Source: Microseira wollei NIES-4236
GTDB lineage: Bacteria > Cyanobacteriota > Cyanobacteriia > Cyanobacteriales > Aerosakkonemataceae
Direction of reading: 5' to 3'
Length of the DNA stretch: 42,039 nt
Assembly (NCBI RefSeq): GCF_020521235.1
Contig: NZ_BLAY01000087.1
Location: 1-42,039, forward strand
In this document: positions 10,897 to 42,039 of the stretch, piece by piece
Layout of the letters: each line of letters starts with the position of its first letter
Numbering within the stretch: position 1 is the stretch's first letter
Program-made: the position numbers and the translations under genes
Notes under the pieces: generated by a model
What the model was told of the DNA's origin: nothing
The model's database searches: none
What the model saw: only the letters and a program-made list of their open reading frames with translations

Positions 10897-11550
10897 GTTT
10901 CAAACAGGTTATAAGCTAAGAATGCTGAGTCAACCACATCCGAATTTCATTGTTAGTCATGCGCTTGAAATACGGAATGTTTTGCATCTCCAAACTCTTA
11001 GCTTTATTTAGGGCTATGGCAACAAGCTGGCGATGTGGTTGTGCATCAACTTTCACATCTTTTTCTTGCTGAGAAACCATATTTGCCAGTTCCAAACCAT
11101 GTGGATGGTCAAGCAGCTTGGTCAGCAATTCCAATGGATCTTGCATTTTACTTTGCCTCAGTAGAGTGAATAAAGTGAAAACAAAGCTTAACTTTCAAGG
11201 GCTGGTACTTCCTTAAAGCTAATCGCTAAGTAATATCAACGCTACAGTCAATTTGTTGCAACAGTCAAATACCAAAAAGAGCAATTTAACAGCATTTTTT
11301 TCTGAATATGCTGCTAAAATGCCCTGAGCAAAATTTTTCACCTTGTAACGCCCCATAACAGCTTAAAGCTGCTGCTTTCTAAGTACCAGTTAGAAAGTCA
11401 GGCATAGGGAGTTAAATTTAGTTCACTCTACTGACGGGGATTCAATCCCCTTACAGGGATTCAATTCGCTTACACTAATTCAATCCCTATCAGGGATTAT
11501 ATCTTATTCCCCCTGCGAATTTCCCAGGGGGTACTTGGGTTTTAATTACC

Positions 11551-12120
11551 CTACCCCCCATAACAAAACTCCCGCAACCGAGTAGCCGACTGCGGCAGTC
11601 CTTGATTTATTAGCGTTTCTAGATATTCATCAGGGGTTTTGGGTGGATTTCTTAGCCGCAGCCGTTGCTTTTGGGCGGCTTGGCAAACTGCGTCGGAATT
11701 AAGGTCAAGCAAGCGTAAGATAAATCTATCGGGGTGTATTGCTCGAATGTTGTATGGTGCAAGAATCTCGTTAGGAAAATCACTCAAGTTAAAAGTGACA
11801 ATGAAACCCGCTTGACAACGAATTGCCGCCGCAAAGACGTGACAATCGCCTGGATATGGAAGCTGCAATTGTGGAATTAATTCTTCATAGTCTGTCACCA
11901 AACAATTTTTAACGTGTGCATTCATCAAATTTTTGGTTCTTGTAACCTGTTCCAGCGTCAGATCAAGAAGGTTTTGCAGTACATTTCTCATCCATTCCGA
12001 GTGGATTTCCTCTGTCCAACGGGCTTCAAATACAGAGGTAAGTGCTAGCTCAACCAAAAAATACCGCAGGGGTGATCAATACAAGACATTGGCATCATAA
12101 AGAACAATCAGATCTGTCAT
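11551..12120 (-). pseudogene. PIN-domain ribonuclease (VapC-like toxin) interrupted by an in-frame TGA at 12076-12078
   Basis: ATG at 12120 gives MTDLIVLYDANVLY, then TGA, then SPLRYFLVELALT… in the same frame. DANVL carries the first catalytic Asp of PIN domains, so the TTG-initiated 168-aa ORF from the track would lack it. The stop of the upstream HTH gene lies 9 bp before this ATG. Confidence 0.55.
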
Positions 12121-12129
12121 AGGTTAATC

Positions 12130-12630
12130 CTACAGACCCATTGCTTGGGATTCAGCAACCAGTTCATCCATAATTTGAGCGCGTCTCGCGTCATCCTGCT
12201 TTTTATACTCAATTACATCTTGGTAGCGCATCAGGTGAATGTTTCCCTCTATTTTGTAGGGAATTTTGCCAGACTTCATTAACTCCCATACCTGGTGACG
12301 GGTAATCCCCAAAATATCGGCGGCTTGATAAATTTCGATTTCTTTTGTATACGGTTTAATTTTGACCGGGTGTTCCATCCCCGTATGTACTAAAATCTCT
12401 ACCAAGAGTTGCATGACATGAGCCGGAATTTCAATGGTTTTTCCGTTAGTTTCATCTTCCATCAGTTTGATGGTGCAACTGCCCGATTGATTTTCTAAGT
12501 AAGATGCCAAAATGTGGCTACTTGCTAGTGCCATAGCCGCTTCCGATTCGGTTGGTAAAATCGGGTCGCCAATTCGATAATGAGGAAGTTTCATATTAAT
12601 TTGCTGCCAAATTCTAGTGAGCGATCGCAT
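12130..12630 (-). CDS. Helix-turn-helix DNA-binding protein, excisionase/MerR-like HTH_17 family (putative antitoxin partner of PIN gene)
   Basis: C-terminal EIYQAADILGITRHQVWELMKSGKIPYKIEGNIHLMRYQDVIEYKK matches the excisionase-family HTH. It is co-oriented and nearly abutting the PIN gene. The true start is possibly the internal M (MKLPHYRIG, ~12591). Confidence 0.6.
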   Translation of the reverse strand: MRSLTRIWQQINMKLPHYRIGDPILPTESEAAMALASSHILASYLENQSGSCTIKLMEDETNGKTIEIPAHVMQLLVEILVHTGMEHPVKIKPYTKEIEIYQAADILGITRHQVWELMKSGKIPYKIEGNIHLMRYQDVIEYKKQDDARRAQIMDELVAESQAMGL

Positions 12631-12759
12631 TCATCTTAGCAACTGTGCAATACAACTGCGTTCGCCAAGCGAAGCGAGGCATATCGCTACCCCAAAACAC
12701 AACTGGGCGATCGCATCCAACATCGGCACGCGATCGCCCCCAATCCGCTTAATGATTCA

Positions 12760-13011
12760 CTAGAACTTGATTCTGCGAGTCAAAATACTCATCACCTCAC
12801 CAGAACCGGGTGCCGGTAACAAGGGACTCCACTCGTGAATTTGAGCAAACCGAACGACATAAAGCGTGCGAATTGTAGAAGTGACTCCTCTGTGGGAACC
12901 AATTACCAGAACCCGCACCACTTCGTAATCATCCGTCCCAGCTAGCAAACTGTCAGCAGCTTCTAGCGGCACAAAGGGGAAATTTCCTGATGGGACATCA
13001 GTCTGTAACAT
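12760..13011 (-). CDS. Conserved hypothetical 83-aa protein, copy 1 of a duplicated pair
   Basis: About 90% identical to the 14422..14673 product (MLQTD..SGNFPFV.LEAADSLLAGTDDYEVVRVLVIGSHRGV.STIRTLYVVR.AQI.EWSPLLPAPGSGEVMSILTRRIKF). Conservation across the duplication, including upstream sequence, argues it is a real gene. No family recognised. Confidence 0.5.
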   Translation of the reverse strand: MLQTDVPSGNFPFVPLEAADSLLAGTDDYEVVRVLVIGSHRGVTSTIRTLYVVRFAQIHEWSPLLPAPGSGEVMSILTRRIKF

Positions 13012-13200
13012 AGTTTATGTACCTCCTTTAGGTACGTCTATAGGTGGTAAAGTCGCGCTTTAGGTCTCCTACACCTTTGGCGCGGCGCTTTTTTTGGTTG
13101 ATGATGGCATCATAGCATAAGTTACATAGATTGGTCAAGAGGTACATCAGTTGGCATATTTGTCGATGCCAATCGCGCCGCAACGCATAATATTTAATAC

Positions 13201-13404
13201 GTGGACAATTTATGCAAAATGCCTACAAATAGATCTAGAACAACCGTTAGTTTTGACCCTAGCGACTATAAGGAACTAGAGGAGTGGGCTGATGAAGAAT
13301 TCAGGTCTGTACCTCAGTTAATCCATGTCATTATCAAAAAGGCTTTAATTGAGCGCAGACAAAAATCTTCCTCACCTAGTAAGGACAGCAACGAGGGAAA
13401 GTGA
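13201..13404 (+). CDS. Small ribbon-helix-helix-like protein (67 aa), divergent from 83-aa gene copy 1
   Basis: TTVSFDPSDYKELEEWADEEFRSVPQLIHVIIKKAL has a beta-strand plus two-helix pattern like CopG/ParD-type RHH antitoxins. The call is weak. Confidence 0.35.
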   Translation: MDNLCKMPTNRSRTTVSFDPSDYKELEEWADEEFRSVPQLIHVIIKKALIERRQKSSSPSKDSNEGK

Positions 13405-13439
13405 AATAATGCAGGGGGCGATCGCCTACGCAACCCCGA

Positions 13440-13510
13440 TAACACAACTCCCGCAGTCTAACAGCCAACTGCGGGAGTACTTGATTTCATTATCCGATTT
13501 ATCTCGCTTC
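13440..13510 (-). repeat. Stem-loop repeat derived from the 3' end of a PIN gene (AACTCCCGCAGTCTAACAGCCAACTGCGGGAGT)
   Basis: Nucleotide-similar to 11565-11640 (the real PIN 3' end) and to 15105-15180. Contains a 13-bp inverted repeat, CTCCCGCAG…CTGCGGGAG. Confidence 0.5.
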
Positions 13511-13679
13511 AGATGTCGAGCTGTTTCTCACTAAAATTTCTGAATCTAAAAAGATTGACGTTCAAGTTTTGGTCGAGCAATGGTTGATAAATAACATTAA
13601 ATAGATGCCAAATATTGAGTAAGTTATAAACTCTGTTTCTTTAAGAAGCAGGGTTTTTGATTTATCGTTATTATTTCAA

Positions 13680-14300
13680 ATGATACAATCGTATAGTAGC
13701 GGTATTTCCAAAACAATGATTGCCAATCCAAGCCAAAATTACATTTCTCCTCAAGATTATCTAGCAGGAGAGGAACTCAGCCCCATCAAACACGAATATA
13801 TTGATGGACAAATCTACGCAATGGCTGGGGCTAGCGATTCCCATGTTACCATTTCCCTCAACCTTGCTTCATTGTTAAGAAATCATGTCCGAGGTACTGG
13901 CTGCCGTGTCTATATGGCGGACATGAAAGCCTATATTGAAACAGCCAATATCTTTTACTATCCTGATGTGATGGTAACTTGCGATACCAGAGATCGAGAA
14001 TTCCCCATTCAAAAAAAATATCCTTGTTTAATTGTCGAAGTTTTATCTCAAAAAACAGAAGCATTCGATCGAGGTGACAAGTTTGCCGACTATCAACAAT
14101 TAGAAACTCTGCAAGAATATGTCTTAATTAGCCAAAAGCGCCAACGTTTAGAATGCTTCCGCCGCAATGCTGAGGGTTTTTGGGTATTGCAAACGTACAA
14201 TCAAGGCAGTGAAATTCATTTAGCAAGCATCGATTTTCGGACTAGCATGGATAGTTTATATGAAGATGTGACTTTCGGAAATAATGAAGAAACTCAGTAG
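13680..14300 (+). CDS. Uma2-family (DUF820) putative restriction-endonuclease-like protein
   Basis: ISPQDYLAGEE…HEYIDGQIYAMAGASDSH…YPDVMVTCD…YPCLIVEVLSQKTEAFDRGDKFADYQQ is the characteristic Uma2 pattern, abundant in cyanobacteria. The start may be the internal M at ~13716. Confidence 0.8.
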   Translation: MIQSYSSGISKTMIANPSQNYISPQDYLAGEELSPIKHEYIDGQIYAMAGASDSHVTISLNLASLLRNHVRGTGCRVYMADMKAYIETANIFYYPDVMVTCDTRDREFPIQKKYPCLIVEVLSQKTEAFDRGDKFADYQQLETLQEYVLISQKRQRLECFRRNAEGFWVLQTYNQGSEIHLASIDFRTSMDSLYEDVTFGNNEETQ

Positions 14301-14421
14301 GTTGGGTAACGCTATGCTCAACCCAACCTACGAATTATTAGATAAATTGATCGCGCTAAGTATGGGAGAGCGATCGCATCCAAAATCGGCACGCGATCGC
14401 CCCAATTCACCCAGGGATTTA

Positions 14422-14673
14422 CTAGAACTTAATTCGGCGAGTCAAAATACTCATCACCTCACCAGAACCGGGTGCCGGTAACAAGGGACTCCACTCGCTA
14501 ATTTGAGCAACTCGAACCACGTAAAGCGTACGAATTGTAGAATTGACTCCTCTGTGGGAACCAATTACCAGAACCCGCACCACTTCGTAATCATCTGTTC
14601 CAGCTAGCAAACTGTCCGCAGCTTCTAGCGACACAAAGGGGAAATTTCCTGATTCGAGATCAGTCTGTAACAT
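14422..14673 (-). CDS. Conserved hypothetical 83-aa protein, copy 2 of duplicated pair
   Basis: Paralog of 12760..13011. Its flanks are also conserved (…GTAGGTGGTAAAGTCGCGCTTT…GGCGCGGCGCTTTTT…). Confidence 0.5.
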   Translation of the reverse strand: MLQTDLESGNFPFVSLEAADSLLAGTDDYEVVRVLVIGSHRGVNSTIRTLYVVRVAQISEWSPLLPAPGSGEVMSILTRRIKF

Positions 14674-15043: not shown

Positions 15044-15113
15044 CAGATGATATCGCACGACTGTTGCGCTGCTGCGCGCGTTCCTTGCGCCTGCGGTCGG
15101 CATATCGCATCCT

Positions 15114-15179
15114 ACCCCCGTAACGCAACTCCCGCAGCCAAAGTGCCGACTGCGGGAGTTGCTGATTTATTAATGCCAA
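15114..15179 (-). pseudogene. C-terminal remnant of a second PIN-domain gene
   Basis: Minus-strand translation LINQQLPQSALWLRELRYGG matches the C-terminus of the 11551 PIN protein (LINQGLPQSATRLREFCYGG). No upstream PIN coding sequence remains. Confidence 0.45.
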
Positions 15180-15467
15180 AATCTCGGATTTAACATTAAA
15201 AAAATTTTTTCAACTCACCCTTTTGAGTTGCGTATTACAAGCTACCACACTCGTGTGTCACAGAAATAAGCGACTGGCAACAAGCTTTCTGCAAAAGTTA
15301 AATTCATAGAGAAGTGAATTGGCTAAATTGAAAAATAAGTCTAGCCAATTGTGGGGAACAAACCTGAATGCTGTTGGCTCTATCTATTGTAGAGTTAAAC
15401 GCTACAGGTACTGAAAGGCCAAGGGCTTATCGGTGGTTATTTAAGTATATGGAATAGGAGTATTCAC

Positions 15468-17072
15468 ATGAGCGATCGCACTCGTGGAGTTTGGATTTGG
15501 AATTTGTCAAAAATTCGCAGCGATTATCTGGATAAGCTAGTTGAACGCCAAGTTAAGCGAGTTTATCTCAAAGTCTTTGATGGTAAATTCCAAGGGAAAC
15601 TGCAACCCACATTTTGGGATTGGCAATGTTCTGCTGAAATCGTGCAACAATTCCAATTGCTTGGGATTCAAGTTTATGGATGGGGGTATCACTACGGAAC
15701 TTCTGATGTTGATGAGCAGGTAGCTAAAGTTAAGCAAGCGCTTGCCTGGGGACTTGATGGGTATATCCTGGATTTGGAAAAGGAAGTTGAGGACAGAAGC
15801 ACTCACCCAAATGTAGAAAAGCTTCTTGCTACTCTGCGTCCTTTAGTTAAGGAAGGAACCCTGGGATATACCAGTTTCGGACATCCTGGATTGCATCCTA
15901 ATGTTCCTTGGAAAATGTTGGATAGGTATTGCGATATTGCTTTACCTCAAATCTATTTTGAGAAATTCACTTTCAAGCCAACCACTTCAGAAGAAGTTAA
16001 GGATTGTTTGGATGCACACAAGCGGCTAGGGTTGACTAAACCAATTCTGCCAATTTGGGGTGACGAAAGCGATACACCAAAACCGGCAATAGCAGCAGAA
16101 CTTCAAGACTACCTGAGTAATTTTCCGGGTTCGTCAATTTGGCGCATTCCTGATGTAGACGAACGTGGCGAAGCGTGGAATTTGGTATATTCTGACTTTG
16201 AATTACCAACCCTCACCCGCATTCTGCGTCGAGGCAGTAAAGGAGATGATGTTAAAGCACTGCAAAAAGTCTTGAATGCCAGAGGGTTTAATGCAGGAAC
16301 AGTAGATGGAGATTTTGGCCCTAAAACTGAAGCGGGTGTTAAAGCATTTCAAACCGAAGCCGATATTACTGTAGATGGGGAAGTTGGAGCGCAGACTTGG
16401 ACAGCGCTTGGTGGTAAGTTTAAAGCAGCTCAGCTAGTCAAGTTTGGCGATTTATCTGAAAGCGAAAAACAAGAGGTAGAAGCTGGCTTTTACTTCCCGC
16501 CTGCATTCGGCAACAGATACGCAAATACATCCAATTCTACTCCTAAACAATGGAGCGGAAATGCTGGACAGCGATCGCGTTATATTCAAGATGCCGATAT
16601 GCCTGTTGTTGCCGATTCAGAATCTCGTTCTGCGGATCAAATTCGTGCAGTAATTAACTACTTCAACGTGGAAGATTCTGGTAATAAACGTTTTTGGCCT
16701 AACGGAGGTGTCACCTGCTGCAATATATTTGCTAGGGATGTTATGCGTTGTCTGCGCGCGCCTTTAACTCACTGGGTTGGCGAAAAAGAGCAAGATGCAA
16801 ATGCCATGTTTGACTGGTTGAGTAACCCGGCAAATGGATGGCGTAAAGTTAGTGCAACCGCAGCAACGGAAGCAGCAAGTAAGGGAATTCCTACTTTGGG
16901 TTGTTGGAAAAATCCAGGAGGAATTGGACATATCGTTGTAGTCCGTCCCGAACCAGGCGAACCAAACAATCCTCGAATTGCTCAAGCTGGTGCAATCAAT
17001 TTTGCCAATGGTCTGGCGTCGAAGGGATTGAGTCCGGCAAAAGGAAGGTTTACTTACTTCGTTTATGACTAA
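15468..17072 (+). CDS. Modular cell-wall hydrolase: N-terminal glycoside-hydrolase-like domain, central peptidoglycan-binding domain (PG_binding_1), C-terminal Cys/His (CHAP- or NlpC/P60-like) domain
   Basis: Central LRRGSKGDDVKALQKVLNARGFNAGTVDGDFGPKTEAGVKAFQ…VDGEVGAQTWTAL is the canonical PG-binding repeat. The N-terminus has GVWIW…VYGWGYHYG…GYILDLE, which is TIM-barrel glycosidase-like. The C-terminus has GGVTCCNIF…GIGHIVVV, a candidate catalytic Cys/His. No signal peptide is apparent. Confidence 0.6.
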   Translation: MSDRTRGVWIWNLSKIRSDYLDKLVERQVKRVYLKVFDGKFQGKLQPTFWDWQCSAEIVQQFQLLGIQVYGWGYHYGTSDVDEQVAKVKQALAWGLDGYILDLEKEVEDRSTHPNVEKLLATLRPLVKEGTLGYTSFGHPGLHPNVPWKMLDRYCDIALPQIYFEKFTFKPTTSEEVKDCLDAHKRLGLTKPILPIWGDESDTPKPAIAAELQDYLSNFPGSSIWRIPDVDERGEAWNLVYSDFELPTLTRILRRGSKGDDVKALQKVLNARGFNAGTVDGDFGPKTEAGVKAFQTEADITVDGEVGAQTWTALGGKFKAAQLVKFGDLSESEKQEVEAGFYFPPAFGNRYANTSNSTPKQWSGNAGQRSRYIQDADMPVVADSESRSADQIRAVINYFNVEDSGNKRFWPNGGVTCCNIFARDVMRCLRAPLTHWVGEKEQDANAMFDWLSNPANGWRKVSATAATEAASKGIPTLGCWKNPGGIGHIVVVRPEPGEPNNPRIAQAGAINFANGLASKGLSPAKGRFTYFVYD

Positions 17073-17077
17073 TTATA

Positions 17078-17230
17078 TTTAGATCTTGCGCCTACCCGCT
17101 TACCCGCCTCTTAATCAATTCCCTTTTCTTATAGCTAAAGTCCACTCAAGTGGACTAACACCTTTCTCCAGTCGTCTTTAGACGACTTCAGCTATGAGCC
17201 AGGGGTTTAAACCCCTGGCGGGAGAAAACC
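17078..17230. repeat. Composite palindromic element immediately after hydrolase stop (TTTAGATCTTGCGCCTACCCGCTTACCCGCC; AGTCCACTCAAGTGGACT; AGTCGTCTTTAGACGACT; GGGGTTTAAACCCC)
   Basis: The same ordered set of motifs occurs after the glpK stop (41729-41850) and, with a variant second hairpin, at 6540-6660. Confidence 0.7.
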
Positions 17231-17249
17231 GCAGTTGCAAGATGTGAGT

Positions 17250-17462
17250 ATAGAAACCGGATGGGAGCATGTCAGGTTTGTAAATTTACGCCGACACCCT
17301 AAAGGGTGCGGCTATACAAACGAAGCCCGCCTTCGCGGGCTAAAGCTTTTAAAGCCTGCGAAGGCAGGCTTTGTTTGTGTAGCGACACCCTTTAGGGTGT
17401 CGGCTACTCTCGTTGACATGCTCCCAACCGGATTTCTTTAGAGAAACCCGGTTTCTGAGTGC
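17250..17462. mobile_element. MITE with ~20-bp terminal inverted repeats (CCGGATGGGAGCATGTCAGG / CGTTGACATGCTCCCAACCGG) and an internal long palindrome (GCCGACACCCTAAAGGGTGCGGCTATACAAACGAAGCCCGCCTTCGCGGGC…)
   Basis: Both the TIRs and the nested palindromes can be read directly. The core is shared with 23221-23400 and, partially, with 4255-4505 and 19995-20045. Confidence 0.55.
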
Positions 17463-17545
17463 AGCGAGGCGGGTTTATATAGGATATGTGTCACAGTCAG
17501 AAATTGCCTGTCATATCATGTCCGGTAGATTACCCATACTCAGAA

Positions 17546-17610
17546 GTCGGGACACGGCATTATTAACGTTATCTGTTTGTCCGAGATATCGTCAGATGCC
17601 GTGTCCCTAC
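17546..17610. repeat. 65-bp hairpin repeat, family member 2 (GTCGGGACACGGCAT…ATGCCGTGTCCCTAC)
   Basis: See 10832-10896. Confidence 0.6.
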
Positions 17611-17678
17611 GCAACGACTCTGTGAGGTTTTTTTATTATGGGCAATTCAACGGACATGATATCAAACCTGCCCCTACT

Positions 17679-18764
17679 TTACCATCCTTGCTGTTCAACT
17701 AAATCGATGCACAGTTGATTTACTGCCTCTTTATCTACTCCTCTGGGTAAGGTAGATTTTGTATAAGCAACATCTAGTCCGTTATACAAATATGAGGCAA
17801 TTTTCATCACTGCTTCGTAGCTGTAATCGCCATTTTTAATGGCTAATAACTCGATCGCATCTCCTGCTTCTTGGCGGTCAACTATCACATTTCCTGTCTC
17901 TAATATTTCAATTCCTGTCCGCAAAAGCCGAATTGCTTGCATGGCAAATTTGCAATCGTAACCTACTTTTGCTTCCATTGCTGCTCTAGCTGGGTTGCGA
18001 TTTTTCTTCCATTGTTGGTAGTTGTCGTATTCTCTGCAAGCACTGTTATATTTTTGGCTTTTTTGCAATAGTTTGATGAAGTCTTTCGAGCTATTAGTCA
18101 GTTTTTGGGTATAGTCGAGCGTTTCTTCTGGTAGCGGGTATTGTTTTAACACTCCTTTGTAGTCAATTTCAGCCATCAATAGGTTATAAAGTTCTTCGGA
18201 TTCTGAGAGGAATTGGATGCGATCGCGTATCAACAAGTACAGATATTCCAAGAATGAATTAATATCAACCAATCCCAGGGGTTGATTTGGTTCTAATCCG
18301 AAATCTTCTGGTTTTGGCTTTTGTTGAGGCGGATCGAGTAACCACCGGCGGTGCGATTCTAATTTCTTGATTTGAGCATATCCATATCCTGCATAAGTAT
18401 GCTTGATTTTTTTTGACAAAAATATTTGCCGGTGTTGTTGTAATATTCTGCCAATTTCGGTTAAATGCACGTAGTCTTTAAACCACAGCAACTCTAGAAT
18501 GTTTGGGTTATTATCCGCAGATAATTCCAAAAACTTCTTCAACTCATAGATACAAGTGTCTTGAGTTAAATAAGAAAAGTTTCCAGGTTCGTCCGTCCAT
18601 CCTCTATCTTTTTGTTCAATTTTCTCAAATCCCAGATAGTAAGGTTTACTCGCAATAAAAACACCGCGATAGTCGTAATCTGAGGTTTCTGTTGCTAATC
18701 CGTAACCTCTAGAACCTGTCAAAGCAATCAGAATTGTTCTGTTTTCAATTTCTAGGCGGTTCAT
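17679..18764 (-). CDS. Pol-beta-superfamily nucleotidyltransferase (predicted-nucleotidyltransferase family of the kind found next to RNA ligases)
   Basis: N-terminal LIALTGSRGYGLATETSDYDYRGVF carries the GS…(D/E)xD nucleotidyltransferase signature. The 361-aa protein has a long helical C-terminal region. It lies downstream of, and co-oriented with, the RNA ligase gene. Confidence 0.65.
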   Translation of the reverse strand: MNRLEIENRTILIALTGSRGYGLATETSDYDYRGVFIASKPYYLGFEKIEQKDRGWTDEPGNFSYLTQDTCIYELKKFLELSADNNPNILELLWFKDYVHLTEIGRILQQHRQIFLSKKIKHTYAGYGYAQIKKLESHRRWLLDPPQQKPKPEDFGLEPNQPLGLVDINSFLEYLYLLIRDRIQFLSESEELYNLLMAEIDYKGVLKQYPLPEETLDYTQKLTNSSKDFIKLLQKSQKYNSACREYDNYQQWKKNRNPARAAMEAKVGYDCKFAMQAIRLLRTGIEILETGNVIVDRQEAGDAIELLAIKNGDYSYEAVMKIASYLYNGLDVAYTKSTLPRGVDKEAVNQLCIDLVEQQGW

Positions 18765-18839
18765 AATTGGCTAATTGGCTAATTGCTAATTGCTAATTGC
18801 TAATTGGAATAGGGGTGTTAAACCGGCGCCGACCGATTC

Positions 18840-19835
18840 TTATGCGGTTAAACCATAATATTTGGATAACCACATGCCATAATGATGGAAAATGAGATTT
18901 TGATGGTATGATACGACTTCAGTTCCGTATTCAAGAGACATGTTTTCTATTAAAGTATCTAGGGAAACTTCTTCGCCTCGATCTACCATTTTCCACAGAG
19001 AGTGAAAGATAGTAATCGGACGGATGCTGACTCTGGCGGTGCGGTGATATTCTTCCATTGAGGGGGGTTTGAATTTCCATTGAAATCCCAAGGACTGGGT
19101 TTCTATATTTAAAACAACTCCTTCATGGCGATATAAACCTAGCAGCGGATTGTTTTCTTTTTCCTGTTCGGCTACTAATTGTTGCCCGAAATGTAAGAGA
19201 GTTTGTTCGCTTAATTTTGGCATTGAAATTCTCGCTAATTCATCAACGATAGGAATGGAATTTGCCGCTGCTATCTGTTTGACGAGTCGCCAAGGTTGGG
19301 TGGTATTTCGATTTTTGATGATGGTGTGCAAAGATAACCTCAGCGGGGTGTCATATTGGACGGTATGTTGATTGTTTGCACCCCAGAGTTCAAACACTAG
19401 GGTGGCGTTTTGTTGGCGACAAACTTTAGCGATTCTTTCTATTAATTGGTCATCTAGTGCGGTATTAACTAATGTGCGAAGCGATCGCCATTTCGTATCC
19501 GCAATTACCACCATACCTCTCTTGCGCGGGAATACCAGTATTTCACCGTCTGGCAACTGCAAGGGCGAAAACAGAATCGCCGTACCGTCCATTTTGCGTG
19601 TGAAAGAGGCAGCGATCGCACGATTCGGTAAAATAAATGGATGTTGTATTTTATGGGTATAAGGTATTTCTGGCATCCCTGGCAATATTTGCTGCGTGGG
19701 GATGTCATTAATTGAATTGATTTCTACTTCGCCAGGAAATTTGCCTCGCTTGATAGTTATTTGACCTTTGAGGGTGTAGACTTTCCCTTTGTGTTCTAGG
19801 GAAGCTTTGAACTTACGCCAGCTATTTTTGCTCAT
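18840..19835 (-). CDS. ATP-dependent RNA ligase-like nucleotidyltransferase (Rnl-type)
   Basis: Covalent nucleotidyltransferase motifs appear in the correct order: motif I FTRKMDGTA (KxDG), motif III/IIIa LVFELWG, motif IV HEGVVL, motif V WKFKP. Spacing fits RNA/DNA ligase adenylyltransferase domains, and the size fits stand-alone RNA ligases. Confidence 0.6.
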   Translation of the reverse strand: MSKNSWRKFKASLEHKGKVYTLKGQITIKRGKFPGEVEINSINDIPTQQILPGMPEIPYTHKIQHPFILPNRAIAASFTRKMDGTAILFSPLQLPDGEILVFPRKRGMVVIADTKWRSLRTLVNTALDDQLIERIAKVCRQQNATLVFELWGANNQHTVQYDTPLRLSLHTIIKNRNTTQPWRLVKQIAAANSIPIVDELARISMPKLSEQTLLHFGQQLVAEQEKENNPLLGLYRHEGVVLNIETQSLGFQWKFKPPSMEEYHRTARVSIRPITIFHSLWKMVDRGEEVSLDTLIENMSLEYGTEVVSYHQNLIFHHYGMWLSKYYGLTA

Positions 19836-20040
19836 AGAAACCTCCCCAGGTAGAAGAAAGTCTTTACCCGTTCGTTAAACAAGATAGCATCAGAAGCTTA
19901 GTTTTATATTACATACATACTACATAAATGTCAAGGGCGAGGGTGGAGAGAGCGATCGCTCCTATATTGGAAGCTAATTTTATCCCAAATTCGGTTAATA
20001 GCCCGCGCAGGCGGGCTTTGTTTGTATAGCCACACCCTTA

Positions 20041-20118
20041 AGGGTGTGGGTGTAGGTGTGGGTGTAGGTGTGGGTGTGGGTGTAGGTGTGGGTGTGTGTG
20101 TGGGTGTGGGTGTGGGTG
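20041..20118. repeat. G-rich hexanucleotide microsatellite (GGGTGT/GTAGGT)n of ~13 units
   Basis: GGGTGTGGGTGTAGGTGTGGGTGTAGG… lies immediately 3' of the DUF1287 gene stop (20132, minus strand) and abuts a MITE-core fragment (19995-20045). Confidence 0.7.
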
Positions 20119-20131
20119 GATCGCGTTGATT

Positions 20132-20797
20132 TCAAAAGAAGCGATAATGTCCAAGAATGGGCCAATTAAACAAAATATCTTCGAGTTCAGTCCCAGCACC
20201 GATGTTATGGATAATCATCAGTCTACCGGAGGGCGATCGCATATCGCTGACGATACCGATGTGTTGCTGTCCGCCGCCTAAATCCCAGGTGACGATATCG
20301 CCTGGTTGATAGTTCGATGAATTGCGACTGATGGGTAATGCTTTACCTTGGCGTTTAAAATAGGTCATTAAATTGGGAACGCGACGGTGATCGATGTTTG
20401 GATCTGGTGCCTTTAACCCCCAATTATTGGGATAGGCGGCAAAGTTTTTTCGCATATCTTGATTGACGGTTTTTTGCAAATCTATATCAACTTCTCGAAA
20501 TGCTCGAATCACGACATCGGTACAAACTCCCGTTGTCATAGGTACATCGCCGCCAGGAAAGGGAATTCGGACGTATGATGGATCGTAGTCACGGGTGATT
20601 TTGGTTTGAGCGATCGCATTGTCTATTACCCGGCGAATTGTGGGCGACGAAACTAACACTTTTGTTAAATTTGAGCTTGTGGCTGGAGTTGGATTGGCAG
20701 GATTGGTAAGCTGATACGCGGCAGGATTTTGACAGGCAGCGCAGAGGGAAGTAACGATCAAAATGACAGGCGTGAAGCGAGCGGTTTTTAAGTCCAC
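20132..20797 (-). CDS. DUF1287-family lipoprotein
   Basis: Signal/lipobox region …VTSLCAAC. Conserved DUF1287 blocks are YDPSYVRIPFPGGDVP, TGVCTDVVIRAFREVDIDLQ, PDPNIDHRRVPNL, YQPGDIVTWDL…HIGIV and IIHNIGAG. Confidence 0.75.
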   Translation of the reverse strand: MDLKTARFTPVILIVTSLCAACQNPAAYQLTNPANPTPATSSNLTKVLVSSPTIRRVIDNAIAQTKITRDYDPSYVRIPFPGGDVPMTTGVCTDVVIRAFREVDIDLQKTVNQDMRKNFAAYPNNWGLKAPDPNIDHRRVPNLMTYFKRQGKALPISRNSSNYQPGDIVTWDLGGGQQHIGIVSDMRSPSGRLMIIHNIGAGTELEDILFNWPILGHYRFF

Positions 20798-21091
20798 GAA
20801 GATATCCTCACTTGCTTATCAATAAGTTAACATTTACTCCCTTCCCGCTAGAAGATTATCTATTTCTTTCTTCTTCCTTCTTCCTTCGTGTCCTTCGCGT
20901 CTTCGTGGTTCATTCAATAGAAATTCATCCGACAAGAAGGGAGTAAACAAATCCCTACTCGGATTTTCTTTACCCCGTAAGGCTTTCAGCTATTTTGGCT
21001 TGTGCAAATTCCAGTTTGGCGCTATACTTAACCTAGATTCACGCAAATGCACCTTGAAAACTAAATATATCGGGCGTTTCAGGATGCAGCT

Positions 21092-21650
21092 GTTGCAACT
21101 AACTAAAATCCCTATTAGGGATTGAAACTCGTGAGCGATCGCTTTAAGCGTCTGTGTTTTCCCAGTTGCAACTGACTAAAATCCCTATTAGTGATTGAAA
21201 CGTGCGTTTGGCGTGTCCCCGTGCGCAGGTGTTCTAGGATTGCAACTGACTAAAATCCCTACTAGGGATTGAAACAAGCTGGTAACTGCGAGACTGTACT
21301 GGGAGAATTATTGTTGCAACTGACTAAAATACCTATTAGGGATTGAAACATTCTGAAATCCTCCTTTGTAGAAATAGTAAGTTTCCGAGTTGCAACTGAC
21401 TAAAATCCCTATTAGGGATTGAAACACTGTAAGCGCCCTTACAGATCTAAAGGTGCGCGAGGGTTGCAACTGACTAAAATCCCTACTAGGGATTGAAACA
21501 ACCAGACGAGGGAGTTCAGCGGTAAAGTAATCAGTTTCGTTGCAACTAACTAAAATCCCTACTAGGGATTGAAACAAATCCTGTAGCTGGCAGTCAACCT
21601 GGTCAAAAAATTGGTTGCAACTTATTCAAATCCCTACTAGGGATTGAAAC
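21092..21650 (+). CRISPR. CRISPR array: 8 repeats of 37 bp (consensus GTTGCAACTGACTAAAATCCCTATTAGGGATTGAAAC), 7 unique spacers of 36-39 bp; no cas genes in window
   Basis: Repeat starts are at 21092, 21165, 21239, 21313, 21389, 21463, 21539 and 21614. The last repeat is degenerate (GTTGCAACTTATTCAAATCCC…), marking the leader-distal end. The repeat ends in ATTGAAAC, the typical 8-nt crRNA 5' handle. An AT-rich putative leader lies at ~20990-21091. Confidence 0.9.
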
Positions 21651-21703
21651 CCCTTAGTCATTAGTAAGTTGGGTTTCGTTACCTCAACCCAACCTACTGT
21701 TAT

Positions 21704-22306
21704 CTAAGAACTAATTTGACGCAGTTTCAATGCATGGAAAATACTTAAAACATCGTGGGTCCATTTGGGCATAATTAGCGTCATGGCGATTTCTTCTATT
21801 GTGTGGATAATGCCTGCAATTATTGCCAGCCACAGGGTTAATCCAGCATAATTAAATCCAAATAAACCAATCGTGGCGATAAACAGCGTGATGCCCCAAA
21901 ATTTGGCTGAATAGGTGTGATAGGAAGCGGGTTTTCCATATTTGGCTAAATTAACTATCCACCAAATTAATTGGGCGAATGCGATTAAACTTAATGGGGT
22001 TGAGAAGGCGATAATTTTATCTGGATGCACCAACCACGCACTGATGCAAATACATAAATAAAGAATCACATCTGCCCAGCTATCAGATTGCCGCAATTTC
22101 GCATTGCTGACGCCAATTCGACGGGCAATGACGCCATCGAAGATATCTGAGAAAAAAGCATAGACAAATCCCAGGATAAACCAAATACTGGTGTTGCCAT
22201 CAATCGCATCCCATAACAGTAAAGGACTGATAGCGAAGCGAGTGTAAACTAAAAATTGGGGCAGGAATTGCAGCAATGAGGAATTTCTGTAAACTGGGGT
22301 TTTCAT
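21704..22306 (-). CDS. CDP-alcohol phosphatidyltransferase family membrane protein
   Basis: Signature DIFDGVIARRIGVSNAKLRQSDSWADV (D-x2-DG-x2-AR…G-x3-D-x3-D) within multi-TM hydrophobic protein. Start placed at the internal ATG (MKTPVY, 22304-22306) because the longer track ORF overlaps the upstream gene by 41 codons. Confidence 0.6.
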   Translation of the reverse strand: MKTPVYRNSSLLQFLPQFLVYTRFAISPLLLWDAIDGNTSIWFILGFVYAFFSDIFDGVIARRIGVSNAKLRQSDSWADVILYLCICISAWLVHPDKIIAFSTPLSLIAFAQLIWWIVNLAKYGKPASYHTYSAKFWGITLFIATIGLFGFNYAGLTLWLAIIAGIIHTIEEIAMTLIMPKWTHDVLSIFHALKLRQISS

Positions 22307-22388
22307 GTTGGACAACAAGTATCTATATCCCCAGTTTTGCTGGTGTTTTGAGTCAAATAGGGTAAGTACGTGCCAGTTGTTAAAAAGT

Positions 22389-23255
22389 CTACCTGCGGTT
22401 TCTAGTGAACAGGAATACCCATAAGACAAATGCTAACCCACTTGCTGTAACGGCAATTAACGGGATGTTCATTTGGCGAATAGCGATCGCAACGAATGCC
22501 CAGACAAACACCAACGGGTAAGCGACATCGCGACGCTGCCCAATTATTATAGCGGCGATCGCTCCCCCGATAACCAGCATTATTACCGTCCACACTTGGG
22601 GAGTAATGCCCCAACCATTCCAGTTTACGCTGTAGAGTGCGATCGCTACATTCACAATCGTCGCGACGCTAATCCAACCAAAATAGATACTCAGGGGAAT
22701 ATGTACCCACCATTTGTCATTTCTAGCTACTCGTTCTTTGCCAATTCCCAAACGCACATATATCAGCATCAACGGGATTAAAATTCCCAGCATCGCTACG
22801 AGGGAAAGCACAAAGAATCCATACTGAAACAGAAACACCCAAGCAATCTGACATAAACTGGCAATAGTTATCAGATATCCGATTTTCAGCAACTGCGGAT
22901 TGCGTCTTTGGTCTGGTAATCCTTGATAAATTCCAAAGCTAACTAACCCCAGATAAATCAATCCCCAAATCGCAAAAGCATAGTTAGCTGGGGTGATTAG
23001 CACATCGCGGAATGTCGTATTGGAAATTTCTCCTATATTTATGCCATTGGGGGGATTGATATTCGTATACACGTTGATTCCCAAGGCAGCAAGGATAGCG
23101 CCTAAATTTATACCTTGCCGGATAGTATCGGAGTTGAAACGATTATTTATAGTTTGCATATGCCCTGATGTTTGATTTCTGTTATAAGCAAAATCATACC
23201 TTTTTTTATGATAATTGAGCGTCAAGAAACCCGGTTCCTCTAATACCTTCGCCAA
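22389..23255 (-). CDS. Trp-rich polytopic membrane protein, possibly TspO/MBR-related
   Basis: There are at least six hydrophobic helices with many Trp/Tyr (PANYAFAIWGLIYLGL…WWVHIPLSIYFGWISV…). Family assignment is weak. The real start may be the internal MQTINN (23159). Confidence 0.4.
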   Translation of the reverse strand: MAKVLEEPGFLTLNYHKKRYDFAYNRNQTSGHMQTINNRFNSDTIRQGINLGAILAALGINVYTNINPPNGINIGEISNTTFRDVLITPANYAFAIWGLIYLGLVSFGIYQGLPDQRRNPQLLKIGYLITIASLCQIAWVFLFQYGFFVLSLVAMLGILIPLMLIYVRLGIGKERVARNDKWWVHIPLSIYFGWISVATIVNVAIALYSVNWNGWGITPQVWTVIMLVIGGAIAAIIIGQRRDVAYPLVFVWAFVAIAIRQMNIPLIAVTASGLAFVLWVFLFTRNRR

Positions 23256-24904: not shown

Positions 24905-25018
24905 AATTTTAAAGCCAATCTGGAGATTTTTAACATGCTCCGGATTGGCTTTTGGTAATTGGTAATTGCTAATGGCTAATGGCTAATTGCTAATGGCTAA
25001 TTTTTACAATAGCCATTA

Positions 25019-32965: not shown

Positions 32966-33162
32966 CTAACGTAAGTTGCTAGTTATAAACAAGGGCGTTG
33001 CTAATTGCTAATTGCTAATTGCTAATTGCTAATATAGGATTTTTACTGACATTAGCCATTAGCCATTAGCCATTAGCCGCTCTTTGGGAGATAACTAGCA
33101 ACTTGGGTTAGCTATCTAAACGCTAACCGCAACTCCCAACTCTCGACCTTTGGAAATTATCT

Positions 33163-41728: not shown

Positions 41729-42039
41729 TGTTTATTTAGATCTTGCGCCTACCCGCTTACCCGCCTGGGAATAAATTCCCAGGCTAATAGCTAAAGTCCA
41801 CTCAAGTGGACTAAAACTTTTCTCCAGTCGTCTTTAGACGACTTCGCCTCTCGCCTCGTTACCAGGCTCCAGCCTGGTCGCCTCGTTACCAGGCTCCGGC
41901 CTGGTAACGCATTGGTCGCCTCGTTACCAGGCTCCGGCCTGGTAACGCATTGGTCGCCTCGTTACCAGGCTCCGGCCTGGTAACGCATTGGTCGCCTCGT
42001 TACCAGGCTCCGGCCTGGTAACGCATTGGTCGCCTCGTT
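41729..42039. repeat. Composite palindromic element after glpK (same motif set as 17078-17230), followed by a 38-bp tandem repeat (TCGCCTCGTTACCAGGCTCCGGCCTGGTAACGCATTGG) of at least 5 units running to the window edge
   Basis: TTTAGATCTTGCGCCTACCCGCTTACCCGCC, AGTCCACTCAAGTGGACT and AGTCGTCTTTAGACGACT are present. Tandem unit starts are at 41851 (truncated), 41878, 41916, 41954, 41992 and 42030. Each unit holds a TTACCAGGCTCCGGCCTGGTAA hairpin. Confidence 0.75.

Follow-up and report, generated by a model that had tools for sequence, protein, structure and literature searches.

CRISPR arrays that lie scattered and without cas genes have been described in the literature as array fragmentation. 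The best-known relatives of the locus presented here are the orphan 'group 2' arrays of Anabaena (Nostoc) sp. PCC 7120, which are processed by a distant type I-D Cas6, Alr1566 (Reimann et al., 2020, bioRxiv 10.1101/2020.04.14.041012). Viruses also carry such arrays; those of Nostoc cyanophages N-1 (Chenard et al., 2016, PMC4916379) and YongM presumably depend on the Cas proteins of the host, and Alr1566 cleaves the N-1 repeat. In Microcystis, a repeat with the core CCCTATTAGGGATTGAAAC (DR1) is confined to arrays that lie downstream of cas clusters of subtype I-D (PMC4428289). A different design is known from Synechocystis CRISPR3, matured by RNase E, whose repeat has a 5′ stem-loop and a single-stranded AU-rich 3′ half, and whose crRNAs carry handles of 13–14 nt (PMC12464536).

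The locus is chromosomal and belongs to a filamentous, Microseira-like cyanobacterium; it is part of a stretch of 42,039 nucleotides that was analyzed as a whole (the window). It is near certain that it is a bona fide CRISPR array without neighboring cas genes. A repeat search of the window returned an eight-copy family with a spacing of 73–76 nt. The array proper (21092–21650, + strand) consists of eight repeats of 37 nt, with the consensus GTTGCAACTGACTAAAATCCCTATTAGGGATTGAAAC, and seven spacers. Rfam cmscan matched the CRISPR-DR5 model (RF01318; gathering score 40 bits) to all eight repeats on the + strand, with 45.4–59.6 bits (E = 2e-7 to 3e-4) and match starts at 21092, 21165, 21239, 21313, 21389, 21463, 21539, and 21614. 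The locus thus has what is generally asked of a CRISPR array: at least three near-identical direct repeats of 23–55 nt, regularly spaced and separated by unique spacers of similar length. An earlier note on this DNA had counted eight 37-bp repeats, the terminal one degenerate, and seven unique spacers. Both counts hold, the spacers being seven different sequences of 36–39 nt and repeat 8 having four mismatches to the consensus. The note's span for the array (20990–21650) has to be shortened at the 5′-end, where 20990–21091 is the leader.

On folding, a hairpin of 7 bp forms in the 3′ half of the consensus repeat (positions 16–32; −7.8 kcal/mol), with an 8-nt tag, ATTGAAAC, after it. The tag forms the 3′-end of all eight repeats and is intact in each. 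The rest of the repeat has not been kept so well. Point changes are present in seven of the eight copies, and every pair of neighboring repeats is non-identical. Repeat 1 (21092–21128) carries G10A, keeps the hairpin and gives the highest DR5 score (59.6 bits). In repeat 2 (21165–21201; 45.6 bits) G28T breaks the stem, and in repeat 4 (21313–21349; 45.4 bits) C19A does so; on folding, these two of the eight lose the canonical hairpin, repeat 4 reaching only −1.6 kcal/mol, no better than shuffled sequence. Repeat 3 (21239–21275) has G1A and T24C, repeat 6 (21463–21499) has T24C, and repeat 7 (21539–21575) has G10A and T24C; a C in the hairpin loop is found in four repeats. Repeat 5 (21389–21425) is identical to the consensus. 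The terminal repeat 8 (21614–21650; 48.1 bits) has three of its four changes in the 5′ half. The core CCCTATTAGGGATTGAAAC, which had been ascribed to the repeat as such, is present in exact form in repeats 1 and 5 and is not exact in the other six. In eight other arrays of the family, 164 of 168 repeats match their consensus, against one of eight here (Fisher p = 3e-9).

A few other features of the window resemble CRISPR elements and were set aside. A lone Rfam CRISPR-DR28 match at 19999–20022 is a single GC hairpin beside a GGGTGT microsatellite and not an array. The hairpin-rich stretch at 11437–11510 resembles the repeat stem without having the GAAAC tag or the spacing, and was not treated as a CRISPR remnant. 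The 38-nt tandem repeats at 6643–6798 and 41875–42039 run head-to-tail with no spacers and are not CRISPR.

As alignment shows, homologs of the leader (20990–21091, + strand) precede both cas-linked type I-D arrays and other orphan arrays. The earlier description of the region as AT-rich and leader-like is right as to the leader, but its AT-richness is mild (40% GC vs. 45% for the window). A putative sigma-70-type promoter can be read from the sequence at 21000–21028 (+ strand): TTGTGC at 21000–21005, a 17-nt spacer, and TATACT at 21023–21028. In alignments, TATACT falls on the −10 box of related leaders, which have TTGACA as their −35 box; in all three Microseira-like lineages the latter has become TTGTGC. 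A scan for consensus promoters did not call the leader promoter, its −35 box matching the consensus at only three of six positions. Further downstream, 25–41 nt before repeat 1, lies a conserved block, ACCTTGAAAACTAAATA (21051–21067, + strand). Within it ACCTTGAAAA is invariant in an alignment of six leaders (the window, the cas-linked array L014, Anabaena sp. 90 pANA02, Stanieria pSTA7437.01, a Nostoc 7524 plasmid orphan, and phage YongM). A wider alignment of 13 leaders has it in 11, the exceptions being one with a single change (ACCTCGAAAA; L021) and a lone-repeat locus without the block (L016). At the other end, the trailer (21651–21703, + strand) contains an 8-bp inverted repeat (21668–21675/21686–21693) and ends at the stop codon of the convergent gene that follows.

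The repeat and leader belong, with near certainty, to the cyanobacterial type I-D family (Rfam DR5), because homologous leaders and repeats directly follow cas2 of type I-D operons. In the nearest cas-linked array, on metagenome contig L014, the order is csc2, a 234-aa ORF, cas6, cas1, cas2, leader, array; the 234-aa ORF has no Pfam match and occupies the csc1 position. In Anabaena sp. 90 pANA02 and Stanieria cyanosphaera pSTA7437.01, the homologous leader and repeat come directly after cas2 of operons annotated as complete I-D. All the closest cas-linked arrays that were found, these three, are of type I-D. The window array shares with this type the 3′ hairpin and, after it, an 8-nt tag with GAAAC at its end, except for the two repeats that have lost the hairpin, and a leader homologous to those that stand after cas2. 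The earlier note had linked the core to type III-associated arrays; the cas-bearing relatives that were found, by core and leader, are all of type I-D, as they are in Microcystis (PMC4428289).

The cas genes themselves are not nearby. Pfam searches of the 28 main ORFs and PADLOC on all 137 ORFs of at least 50 aa detected no Cas family in the window, as the note had said for some 20 kb on either side. Within the window, the array is adjacent to no cas gene and is linked to none of cas10d, csc2, csc1, and cas6. Its neighbors, also correctly named before, are a DUF1287 gene (20132–20797, − strand; PF06940, E = 1e-72), which is divergent from the array, and a CDP-alcohol phosphatidyltransferase gene (21704–22429, − strand; PF01066), which is convergent with it. 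No Microseira Cas6 was found by name among the best 120 of 1,605 homologs of the L014 type I-D Cas6, and a literature search for CRISPR in Microseira, wollei, or BLCC-F43 returned nothing relevant. Neither of the proteins encoded at the two ends of the window had an exact match on record.

One spacer points to a target. The reverse complement of spacer 1 (21129–21164; 36 nt) encodes GKTQTLKAIAH(E/D), and the spacer matches the Walker-A region of plasmid-borne cyanobacterial ATPases of the DUF87/TrwB type at 26–31 of its 36 nt. Third codon positions account for 31 of the 35 mismatches in the five homologs that were tabulated, and six of 120 homologs have the identical peptide. A near-identical protospacer was sought among these six, and none was found, the best match being 31/36. 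By its match to a plasmid ATPase gene, spacer 1 is of the mobile-element-derived kind. The sequences flanking the target homologs on the 5′ side, which are those of diverged homologs only, are mostly AGT, also AAC, AAA, and others, one nucleotide off the register of GTN, the PAM of type I-D. The remaining spacers are spacer 2 (21202–21238; 37 nt, 65% GC), spacer 3 (21276–21312; 37 nt), spacer 4 (21350–21388; 39 nt), spacer 5 (21426–21462; 37 nt), spacer 6 (21500–21538; 39 nt), and spacer 7 (21576–21613; 38 nt), all on the + strand as is spacer 1. Spacers 4 and 5 are shared with Microseira sp. BLCC-F43 (F43). The search of the spacers against phages and plasmids that had been proposed earlier gave a match in PLSDB for spacer 1 but none for spacers 2–7, and none for any of the seven in INPHARED at E up to 10. 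The central 22-mers of spacers 2–7 had no match in IMG/VR. At up to eight mismatches, no spacer matches elsewhere in the window.

The history of the locus can be followed in related genomes. In a search of 185,579 species genomes for the exact repeat, the only hit was the syntenic locus of F43; it yielded an ortholog and no second array with this repeat, there or in the F43 assembly, a metagenome bin. The orthologous loci were located with the DUF1287 gene as anchor. In F43, spacer 4 retains its 3′ 25 nt with one mismatch and has its 5′ 14 nt deleted, and spacer 5 has one substitution and a 4-nt insertion. The F43 array, which has decayed by deletion, also contains 'spacers' of 7 and 25 nt and duplicated partial repeats, and about 50 nt of the trailer are missing. 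A third lineage (L012) keeps the same leader and the first repeat. In a fourth (L013) the site is empty, the CDP-alcohol phosphatidyltransferase gene being followed 92 nt on by the DUF1287 gene. The difference from it, an indel of about 900 nt, comprises the leader, array, and trailer only. The flanking housekeeping genes keep their synteny in all lineages. The comparison shows that leader and array form a module with a fixed place, flanked by the DUF1287 and CDP-alcohol phosphatidyltransferase genes, and that this module has passed vertically down lineages about 14% apart at silent sites. It also shows that the array is eroding, by point changes in the window and by deletions in the sister species, and that no spacer has been gained for a long time. 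Since seven of the eight repeats carry point changes and two lack the hairpin, spacer uptake must have stopped long ago.

How fast the module diverges bears on whether it is still in use. The leader is 94% identical to that of F43 (6 differences in 102 positions, 5.9%), and the orthologous repeat and spacer positions differ at 7 of 210 (3.3%), a low figure that comes from few sites and only from segments recognizable as orthologous. The corresponding rates are 14.0% at 4-fold degenerate sites and 8.3% in well-aligned intergenic DNA. That the leader, repeats, and shared spacers have diverged more slowly than silent sites hints at continued use. On the other side, F43 tolerates truncated spacers and partial repeat duplications, so that selection on the array appears weak or gone, at least in that lineage.

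We lean toward the view that the array is old and frozen and that, provided the host has a type I-D Cas6 and effector, these service it in trans. That it is still transcribed and so serviced has, judging from sequence comparison, an even chance or slightly better. There is precedent in the orphan arrays of Anabaena 7120, for which distant I-D and III-D cassettes supply the Cas6 that cleaves them (Reimann et al., bioRxiv 10.1101/2020.04.14.041012). In such a scheme, the promoter TTGTGC-17-TATACT in the leader would drive transcription of the + strand, and each intact repeat would form its 7-bp hairpin. Cleavage at the 3′ hairpin base by a type I-D Cas6 encoded elsewhere in the genome would leave crRNAs bearing the 8-nt tag AUUGAAAC. 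These would load into a Cas10d/Csc2/Csc1 complex and direct it to mobile DNA, spacer 1 making a plasmid-borne DUF87-ATPase cassette a candidate target. With no hairpin left in repeats 2 and 4, spacers 2 and 4 would probably fail to give proper crRNAs.

The earlier note had named service in trans and a stranded remnant as the two possible fates, and these are the right alternatives. As a remnant, the array would be the fossil of a lost type I-D system or a stray array fragment, weakly transcribed or not at all, yielding no working crRNAs and slowly decaying. This we consider quite possible, at something short of an even chance. The heterogeneous repeats, only one being of consensus sequence, the two dead hairpins, and the degenerate −35 box are what one would expect of a relic, as are the truncated spacers and partial repeat duplications in F43 and the complete absence of the array from a close relative. 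The lack of a second array with the same repeat, in the F43 assembly or the rest of the 185,579 species genomes, and the lack of a Microseira Cas6 among the best 120 of 1,605 homologs are in the same vein. An inert sequence, however, would not be expected to diverge in its leader, repeats, and shared spacers 2–4 times more slowly than silent sites and at about half the rate of alignable intergenic DNA. Nor would it be expected to keep intact, in three lineages, all eight tags along with the −10 box and the leader's conserved block, or to have spacers of regular length as in the window. Moreover, several CRISPR-Cas systems are usual in filamentous cyanobacteria, and orphan arrays there are processed.

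A further reading would have the array as a frozen immune memory, held by purifying selection through species-level divergence without spacer turnover, perhaps in a host that has lost the adaptation genes or all cognate cas genes. In that case it would serve as an unchanging guide set (e.g., against a conserved plasmid ATPase cassette) or would be matured by housekeeping RNases. From sequence comparison this seems unlikely. Much less likely still is the earlier suggestion that the array is type III-associated and that a host RNase (RNase E or J) matures its crRNAs, as in Synechocystis CRISPR3. The absence of a nearby cas6 agrees with it, and the Anabaena III-D Cas6 also weakly cuts I-D-type repeats. 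The crRNA of spacer 1 would be antisense to the presumed target mRNA, as RNA-targeting type III systems need, which with one spacer is a 50% coincidence. Against it, every cas-adjacent member of the repeat and leader family that was found stands with a type I-D operon, in Microcystis as well (PMC4428289). The CRISPR3 repeat is also built differently from the present one, a 5′ stem-loop and 13–14-nt handles standing against a 3′ hairpin and a short, 8-nt tag by folding (PMC12464536). Last, a mini-array delivered by a phage or mobile element and serving the element rather than the host, in competition between elements or as a repeat decoy, is the hardest to credit: arrays of this leader and repeat family that lack cas genes do exist on Nostoc phages N-1 and YongM and on plasmids, lone repeat units of the family are found on 15 IMG/VR contigs, and the locus is an insertion or deletion relative to a close relative, but the ~900-nt indel comes with no phage, integrase, or transposase gene and no target-site duplication, the housekeeping genes on either side of it are syntenic in every lineage, and the array has been stable through species-level divergence.

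In sum, the stand-alone array is genuine but ordinary, and its kind is already well documented in filamentous cyanobacteria, namely in Anabaena 7120. Its value is modest, and it does not challenge current understanding. The cas-less 'fragmented' arrays of the I-D type have been characterized experimentally in Anabaena 7120, a member of the Nostocales, and the present locus is in a Microseira-like genome. It offers a natural series at one site, empty, intact-looking, and deletion-ridden, that could be used to measure the rate at which orphan arrays decay and to see if selection on them persists. The shared and private spacers are possible strain markers for bloom-forming Microseira.

Among known systems, CRISPR3 of Synechocystis sp. 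PCC 6803 (type III-Bv; RNase E and RNase J) is like the window array in being cyanobacterial and having no cas6 beside it, and unlike it in its 5′ stem-loop repeat, its handle of 13–14 nt, and its adjacent cmr genes. The arrays of Nostoc cyanophages N-1 and YongM share the repeat family (GTTGCAAC...AATCCCTATTAGGGATTGAAAC), a homologous leader, and the lack of cas genes. They are phage-borne, whereas the window array has chromosomal housekeeping genes on both sides and has remained stable while species diverged. The cas-linked I-D arrays (pANA02, pSTA7437.01, L014, and Microcystis aeruginosa DR1) have the same 3′ half of the repeat, with CCCTATTAGGGATTGAAAC or a near variant, and a leader of the same architecture, in which the ACCTTGAAAA block recurs and the −10 box aligns. 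They follow cas2 of a cas3′-cas10d-cas7d-cas5d-cas6-cas4-cas1-cas2 operon, whereas no cas gene lies within 20 kb here, and their repeats are essentially identical (20/21, 43/43), in contrast to the seven variant repeats of eight and the weakened −35 box of the window array. Finally, compared with the group 2 arrays of PCC 7120 (CR_4, 6/7, 8, and 11), the window array, for which processing in trans is a candidate only, is visibly aged, with heterogeneous repeats and spacers shared across species, and its host is of the Aerosakkonematales/Oscillatoriales type rather than of the Nostocales. Otherwise the two are alike: both are cas-less and scattered on the chromosome of a filamentous cyanobacterium, and both have 37-nt repeats of the DR5 type with a 3′ hairpin and a GAAAC end.

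Positions 21092–21650 of the forward strand hold what is beyond reasonable doubt a genuine CRISPR array. A repeat search of the window returns one family of eight copies (period 73–76 nt, within 21080–21652), and Rfam cmscan at gathering thresholds places eight full-length matches to RF01318 (CRISPR-DR5; 45.4–59.6 bits, gathering score 40), all on the plus strand and starting at 21092, 21165, 21239, 21313, 21389, 21463, 21539, and 21614. The Rfam model and the homology of the leader (20990–21091) both indicate that the array is read from the plus strand. The seven spacers (36–39 nt) are unrelated among themselves, and the last repeat, R8, departs from the consensus (GTTGCAACTGACTAAAATCCCTATTAGGGATTGAAAC) by four changes; the earlier note had counted repeats and spacers correctly and had recognized the degenerate end. 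R5 is the only copy identical to the consensus, a point that the earlier note missed. R1 and R7 have G10A, R3 has G1A, and R3, R6, R7, and R8 have T24C in the loop, while stem positions are changed in R2 (G28T) and R4 (C19A). Folding of the consensus gives a 7-bp hairpin (positions 16–32; –7.8 kcal/mol) with GAAAC left unpaired; R2 and R4 have lost it. The 8-nt end, ATTGAAAC, is retained in all eight repeats.

Inside the 42-kb window the array is an orphan, a point on which we have very little hesitation. Pfam scans find no Cas protein among the 28 substantial ORFs. A PADLOC-DB scan of all 137 ORFs of at least 50 aa, meant to catch small or overlooked genes, matched 27 families, with no Cas family among the 25 listed; the unannotated ORFs likewise have no Cas match. 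Pfam does identify a major-vault-protein homologue, CobN, an RlaP/RNA-ligase pair, a P-type ATPase, histidine kinases, and glycerol kinase. The array itself is flanked by genes for a DUF1287 protein (20132–20797, minus strand, divergent) and a CDP-alcohol phosphatidyltransferase (21704–22429, minus strand, convergent), so both the neighbors and the lack of cas genes are as first read. Beside the array, an RlaP-type nucleotidyltransferase and a T4 Rnl1-like RNA ligase are adjacent (17679–19835, minus strand); they may be an RNA-repair pair, and are present in every Microseira-like relative.

Other features of the window deserve mention. The vault homologue (811–3435, minus strand; 874 aa) has very strong Pfam matches to domains of the eukaryotic major vault protein (E = 9e-65 for the Vault repeats, E = 3e-54 for the MVP shoulder; also Vault_2/3/4) and is unusual on a cyanobacterial chromosome. 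Two PEP-CTERM-anchored proteins (1–718 and 5145–6410, plus strand) have 132-nt (44-aa) tandem repeats and DUF3466 similarity, and are probably secreted or sorted. Head-to-tail repeats of 36–38 nt, each with a GC-rich inverted repeat (e.g., TTACCAGGC-TCCG-GCCTGGTAA), lie at 41875–42039, 6643–6798, and 35082–35161; one set has 4.3 copies, 100% identical, and continues past the window end. Lacking spacers, they were rejected as CRISPR; they resemble a dispersed MITE-like element, and a flanking 120-nt element (41733–41854) recurs elsewhere in the contig of Microseira sp. BLCC-F43 (F43; L004 5730–5853). At 11551–14673 a duplicated small module (83-aa ORF and HTH_17 protein) accompanies a Uma2-family endonuclease with a hit (E = 1e-26) to PDC-S03, one of the candidate defence families of PADLOC. 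The F43 lineage has a PIN/VapC gene inserted in the matching region, which looks like a variable one with toxin-antitoxin or defence genes. A GGGTGT microsatellite (20042–20118, 12.8 copies) and heptanucleotide tandem repeats (TAATTGC, TTGCTAA, CCAATTA, and others) at many intergenic sites (e.g., 18764–18806, 24952–25002, 32998–33078) are of a kind typical in filamentous cyanobacteria.

The history of the array can be followed in relatives. A repeat scan of one genome per species (185,579 species; R/Y permitted at two variable positions) matched a single contig, that of F43, which is syntenic and 92–93% identical to window 15109–23197 in reverse orientation; this marks the window as Microseira-like and not as Nostoc. 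Read in the window orientation, the F43 array starts with a homologous leader and R1′ (three changes, one disrupting the stem), and a remnant of 7 nt separates R1′ from R2′. After R2′ comes window spacer 4, reduced to its 3′ 25 nt and mismatched once. R3′ is followed by two additional partial repeats (TTAGGGATTGAAAC) and by window spacer 5, which has an insertion of 4 nt and a single substitution. R4′, a 40-nt spacer absent from the window, and a degenerate terminal repeat complete the array. This sister array is clearly damaged by deletions, and five metagenome contigs of the F43 lineage, the longest of 142 kb, carry an identical copy of its 677-nt region. Two further relatives were reached through homologues of the DUF1287 protein. 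One (L012, DUF1287 87% identical in amino acids) has a homologous leader and first repeat (GTTGAAACTCAATCAAATCCCTATTAGGG), where the contig ends. The other (L013, phosphatidyltransferase gene 92% identical in nucleotides) is an empty site, in which 92 nt with a hairpin separate the transferase stop codon from DUF1287. Homology between filled and empty sites ends within the last ~nine transferase codons and restarts at TGTTAACTTATT, ~35 nt ahead of the DUF1287 start; the ~900-nt indel therefore comprises the leader, array, and trailer, and the comparison reveals neither genes of mobile elements in it nor an obvious duplication of the target. The series of loci shows vertical inheritance with decay. 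The last transferase codons (21716–21727, minus-strand reading), ...GCATTGAAACTGCG, include the 8-nt tag ATTGAAAC in opposite orientation at the indel boundary; this is not present in F43 and is probably a coincidence (~3% chance in 1 kb).

Spacer uptake copies the first repeat along, and active arrays have uniform repeats because each uptake duplicates it. Of the 168 repeats in eight other arrays of the family, 164 are identical to their respective consensus, vs. one of eight in the window (Fisher p = 3e-9), where all adjacent pairs are non-identical. Spacers 4 and 5 are common to the F43 lineage despite 14.0% divergence at 4-fold degenerate sites (231/1,651). The trailer-end spacers are unlike, which, this being the old end of the array, is explained by differential loss, not gain. 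Because of the heterogeneous repeats, the shared spacers, and the trailer-end pattern, uptake very probably ended long ago, with none recent.

Whether the array is by now an inert relic is a separate matter, and we consider this a serious but somewhat less probable outcome. Against fully neutral decay, orthologous repeat and spacer positions differ from F43 at 3.3% (7/210) and the leader at 5.9% (6/102), compared with 8.3% of well-aligned intergenic DNA (93/1,118) and the still higher value at 4-fold sites; array plus leader vs. intergenic DNA gives Fisher p = 0.014, on small numbers and recognizably orthologous segments only. All eight tags, the –10 box, and a leader block are also unbroken. 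The slow divergence hints at continued constraint, short of proof.

We favor an old, cas-less array of the type I-D family, putatively serviced in trans. A relaxed repeat pattern run over metagenome contigs gave ten loci, one of which (L014, 85 kb) has the order csc2, 234-aa ORF, cas6, cas1, cas2, leader, and 21-repeat array (Csc2, E = 3e-121; Cas6_N, E = 2e-76). The 234-aa ORF has no Pfam match and occupies the csc1 position; the arrangement is a type I-D layout. Three other arrays (L015, L018, L020) adjoin housekeeping genes, and the flanks examined are free of cas genes; cas-less copies thus seem common in the family. The leaders of the metagenome arrays align with that of the window: a block, ACCTTGAAAA (21051–21060, 32–41 nt upstream of repeat 1), is unchanged across a six-leader alignment and retained in 11 of 13 leaders of a wider one, the –10 boxes are in register, and the –35 box is TTGACA in the related leaders. 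Conserved leader motifs promoting I-D adaptation have been reported (Kieper et al., 2019; PMC6607411), but no correspondence of their motifs I–III with this block could be established. When leader plus repeat 1 was used as BLAST query against annotated plasmids, the module was found immediately 3′ of cas2 in a complete annotated type I-D operon (cas3′-cas10d-cas7d-cas5d-cas6-cas4-cas1d-cas2) on pANA02 of Anabaena sp. 90, at the equivalent place on Stanieria pSTA7437.01, and as an orphan with 37 repeats on a Nostoc PCC 7524 plasmid. Nostoc phage YongM has the module as well. In line with this, the phage N-1 repeat, of the same family, is reported to be cleaved preferentially by the I-D Cas6 Alr1566 (bioRxiv 10.1101/2020.04.14.041012). 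Sequence comparison thus assigns repeat and leader to the type I-D family with high confidence. The earlier note had linked the repeat core to type III arrays, at least one of them matured by a host RNase, but a type III array matured by RNase E is hardly credible, as the repeat family is tied to I-D operons (L014, pANA02, pSTA7437.01), its leader-repeat module following I-D cas2, and the RNase E/J-matured Synechocystis CRISPR3 repeat has another architecture, with a 5′ stem-loop, a single-stranded 3′ half, and 13–14-nt handles (PMC12464536).

Single family repeats also occur in three metagenome loci (L017 1821–1857, L016 1220–1256, L023 12970–13006); that of L017 follows a complete I-D-type leader, a would-be minimal "empty" array. 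Fifteen IMG/VR viral contigs (L035–L049) have the 3′ half of the repeat (e.g., L035 1016–1052), eight with a common lone unit, CACAACAGCTAACTTAATCCCTACTAGGGATTGAAAC, and no surrounding array, and others with 2–3 repeats. Such lone phage units could act as decoys of the I-D Cas6 or effector, in the manner of RNA anti-CRISPRs.

For the type I-D array proposed here, transcription would start from TTGTGC-17-TATACT (21000–21028), whose weak –35 box a consensus promoter scan overlooked. Cas6 cleavage at the hairpin base would yield AUUGAAAC-tagged crRNAs, destined for a type I-D effector whose genes would lie elsewhere. Since R2 and R4 form no hairpin, spacers 2 and 4 are expected to give crRNAs without correct 5′ tags; those of spacers 1, 3, 5, 6, and 7 could still undergo the predicted 5′-end maturation. 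The 120 listed of 1,605 homologues of a type I-D Cas6 query include none from Microseira. That putative servicing in trans persists we rate at slightly better than even.

The spacer comparison with phages and plasmids suggested earlier was productive for spacer 1, in a plasmid ATPase gene, and fruitless for spacers 2–7, none of which matches the INPHARED phages, the PLSDB plasmids, or IMG/VR (22-mers). No spacer has a self-match inside the window. Spacer 1 gives three weak nucleotide matches (27/31; 28–30/36 at full length), each time in the same gene and on a cyanobacterial plasmid. Its reverse complement reads GKTQTLKAIAH(E/D), a Walker-A segment of a DUF87/TrwB-type ATPase. The peptide is exact in 6 of 120 homologues, which match spacer 1 at 26–31 of 36 nt; third codon positions hold 31 of 35 mismatches in the five homologues tabulated (7/7 in one). 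The gene belongs to a conserved cassette with a STAND/AAA_22 ATPase, a YdjM metal-dependent hydrolase, and two hypothetical proteins of ~350–400 aa, found on Nostocales plasmids and beside Tn3-type genes (A. cylindrica pANACY.03, L024, 122000–128780; L025, L026, L028, L030, L050); one copy adjoins a resolvase and Tn3 transposase. The peptide, the wobble mismatches, and the plasmid context show that spacer 1 came from a plasmid-like element. None of the databases searched contains the true protospacer. A GTN PAM is expected for type I-D; the 5′ flank of the homologue sites, in these diverged homologues, is mostly AGT, 1 nt out of that register.

What is notable here is only the evident age of the array and the tidy series that it forms with its relatives, in which the site is empty, intact, or decayed. 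Orphan arrays are reportedly widespread in filamentous cyanobacteria. The closest described case is that of Anabaena sp. PCC 7120, where Cas6 from remote I-D and III-D cassettes processes the orphan arrays in trans (bioRxiv 10.1101/2020.04.14.041012). The kind is already known, and the Microseira array adds to it a member from a different cyanobacterial order, Aerosakkonematales (NCBI).
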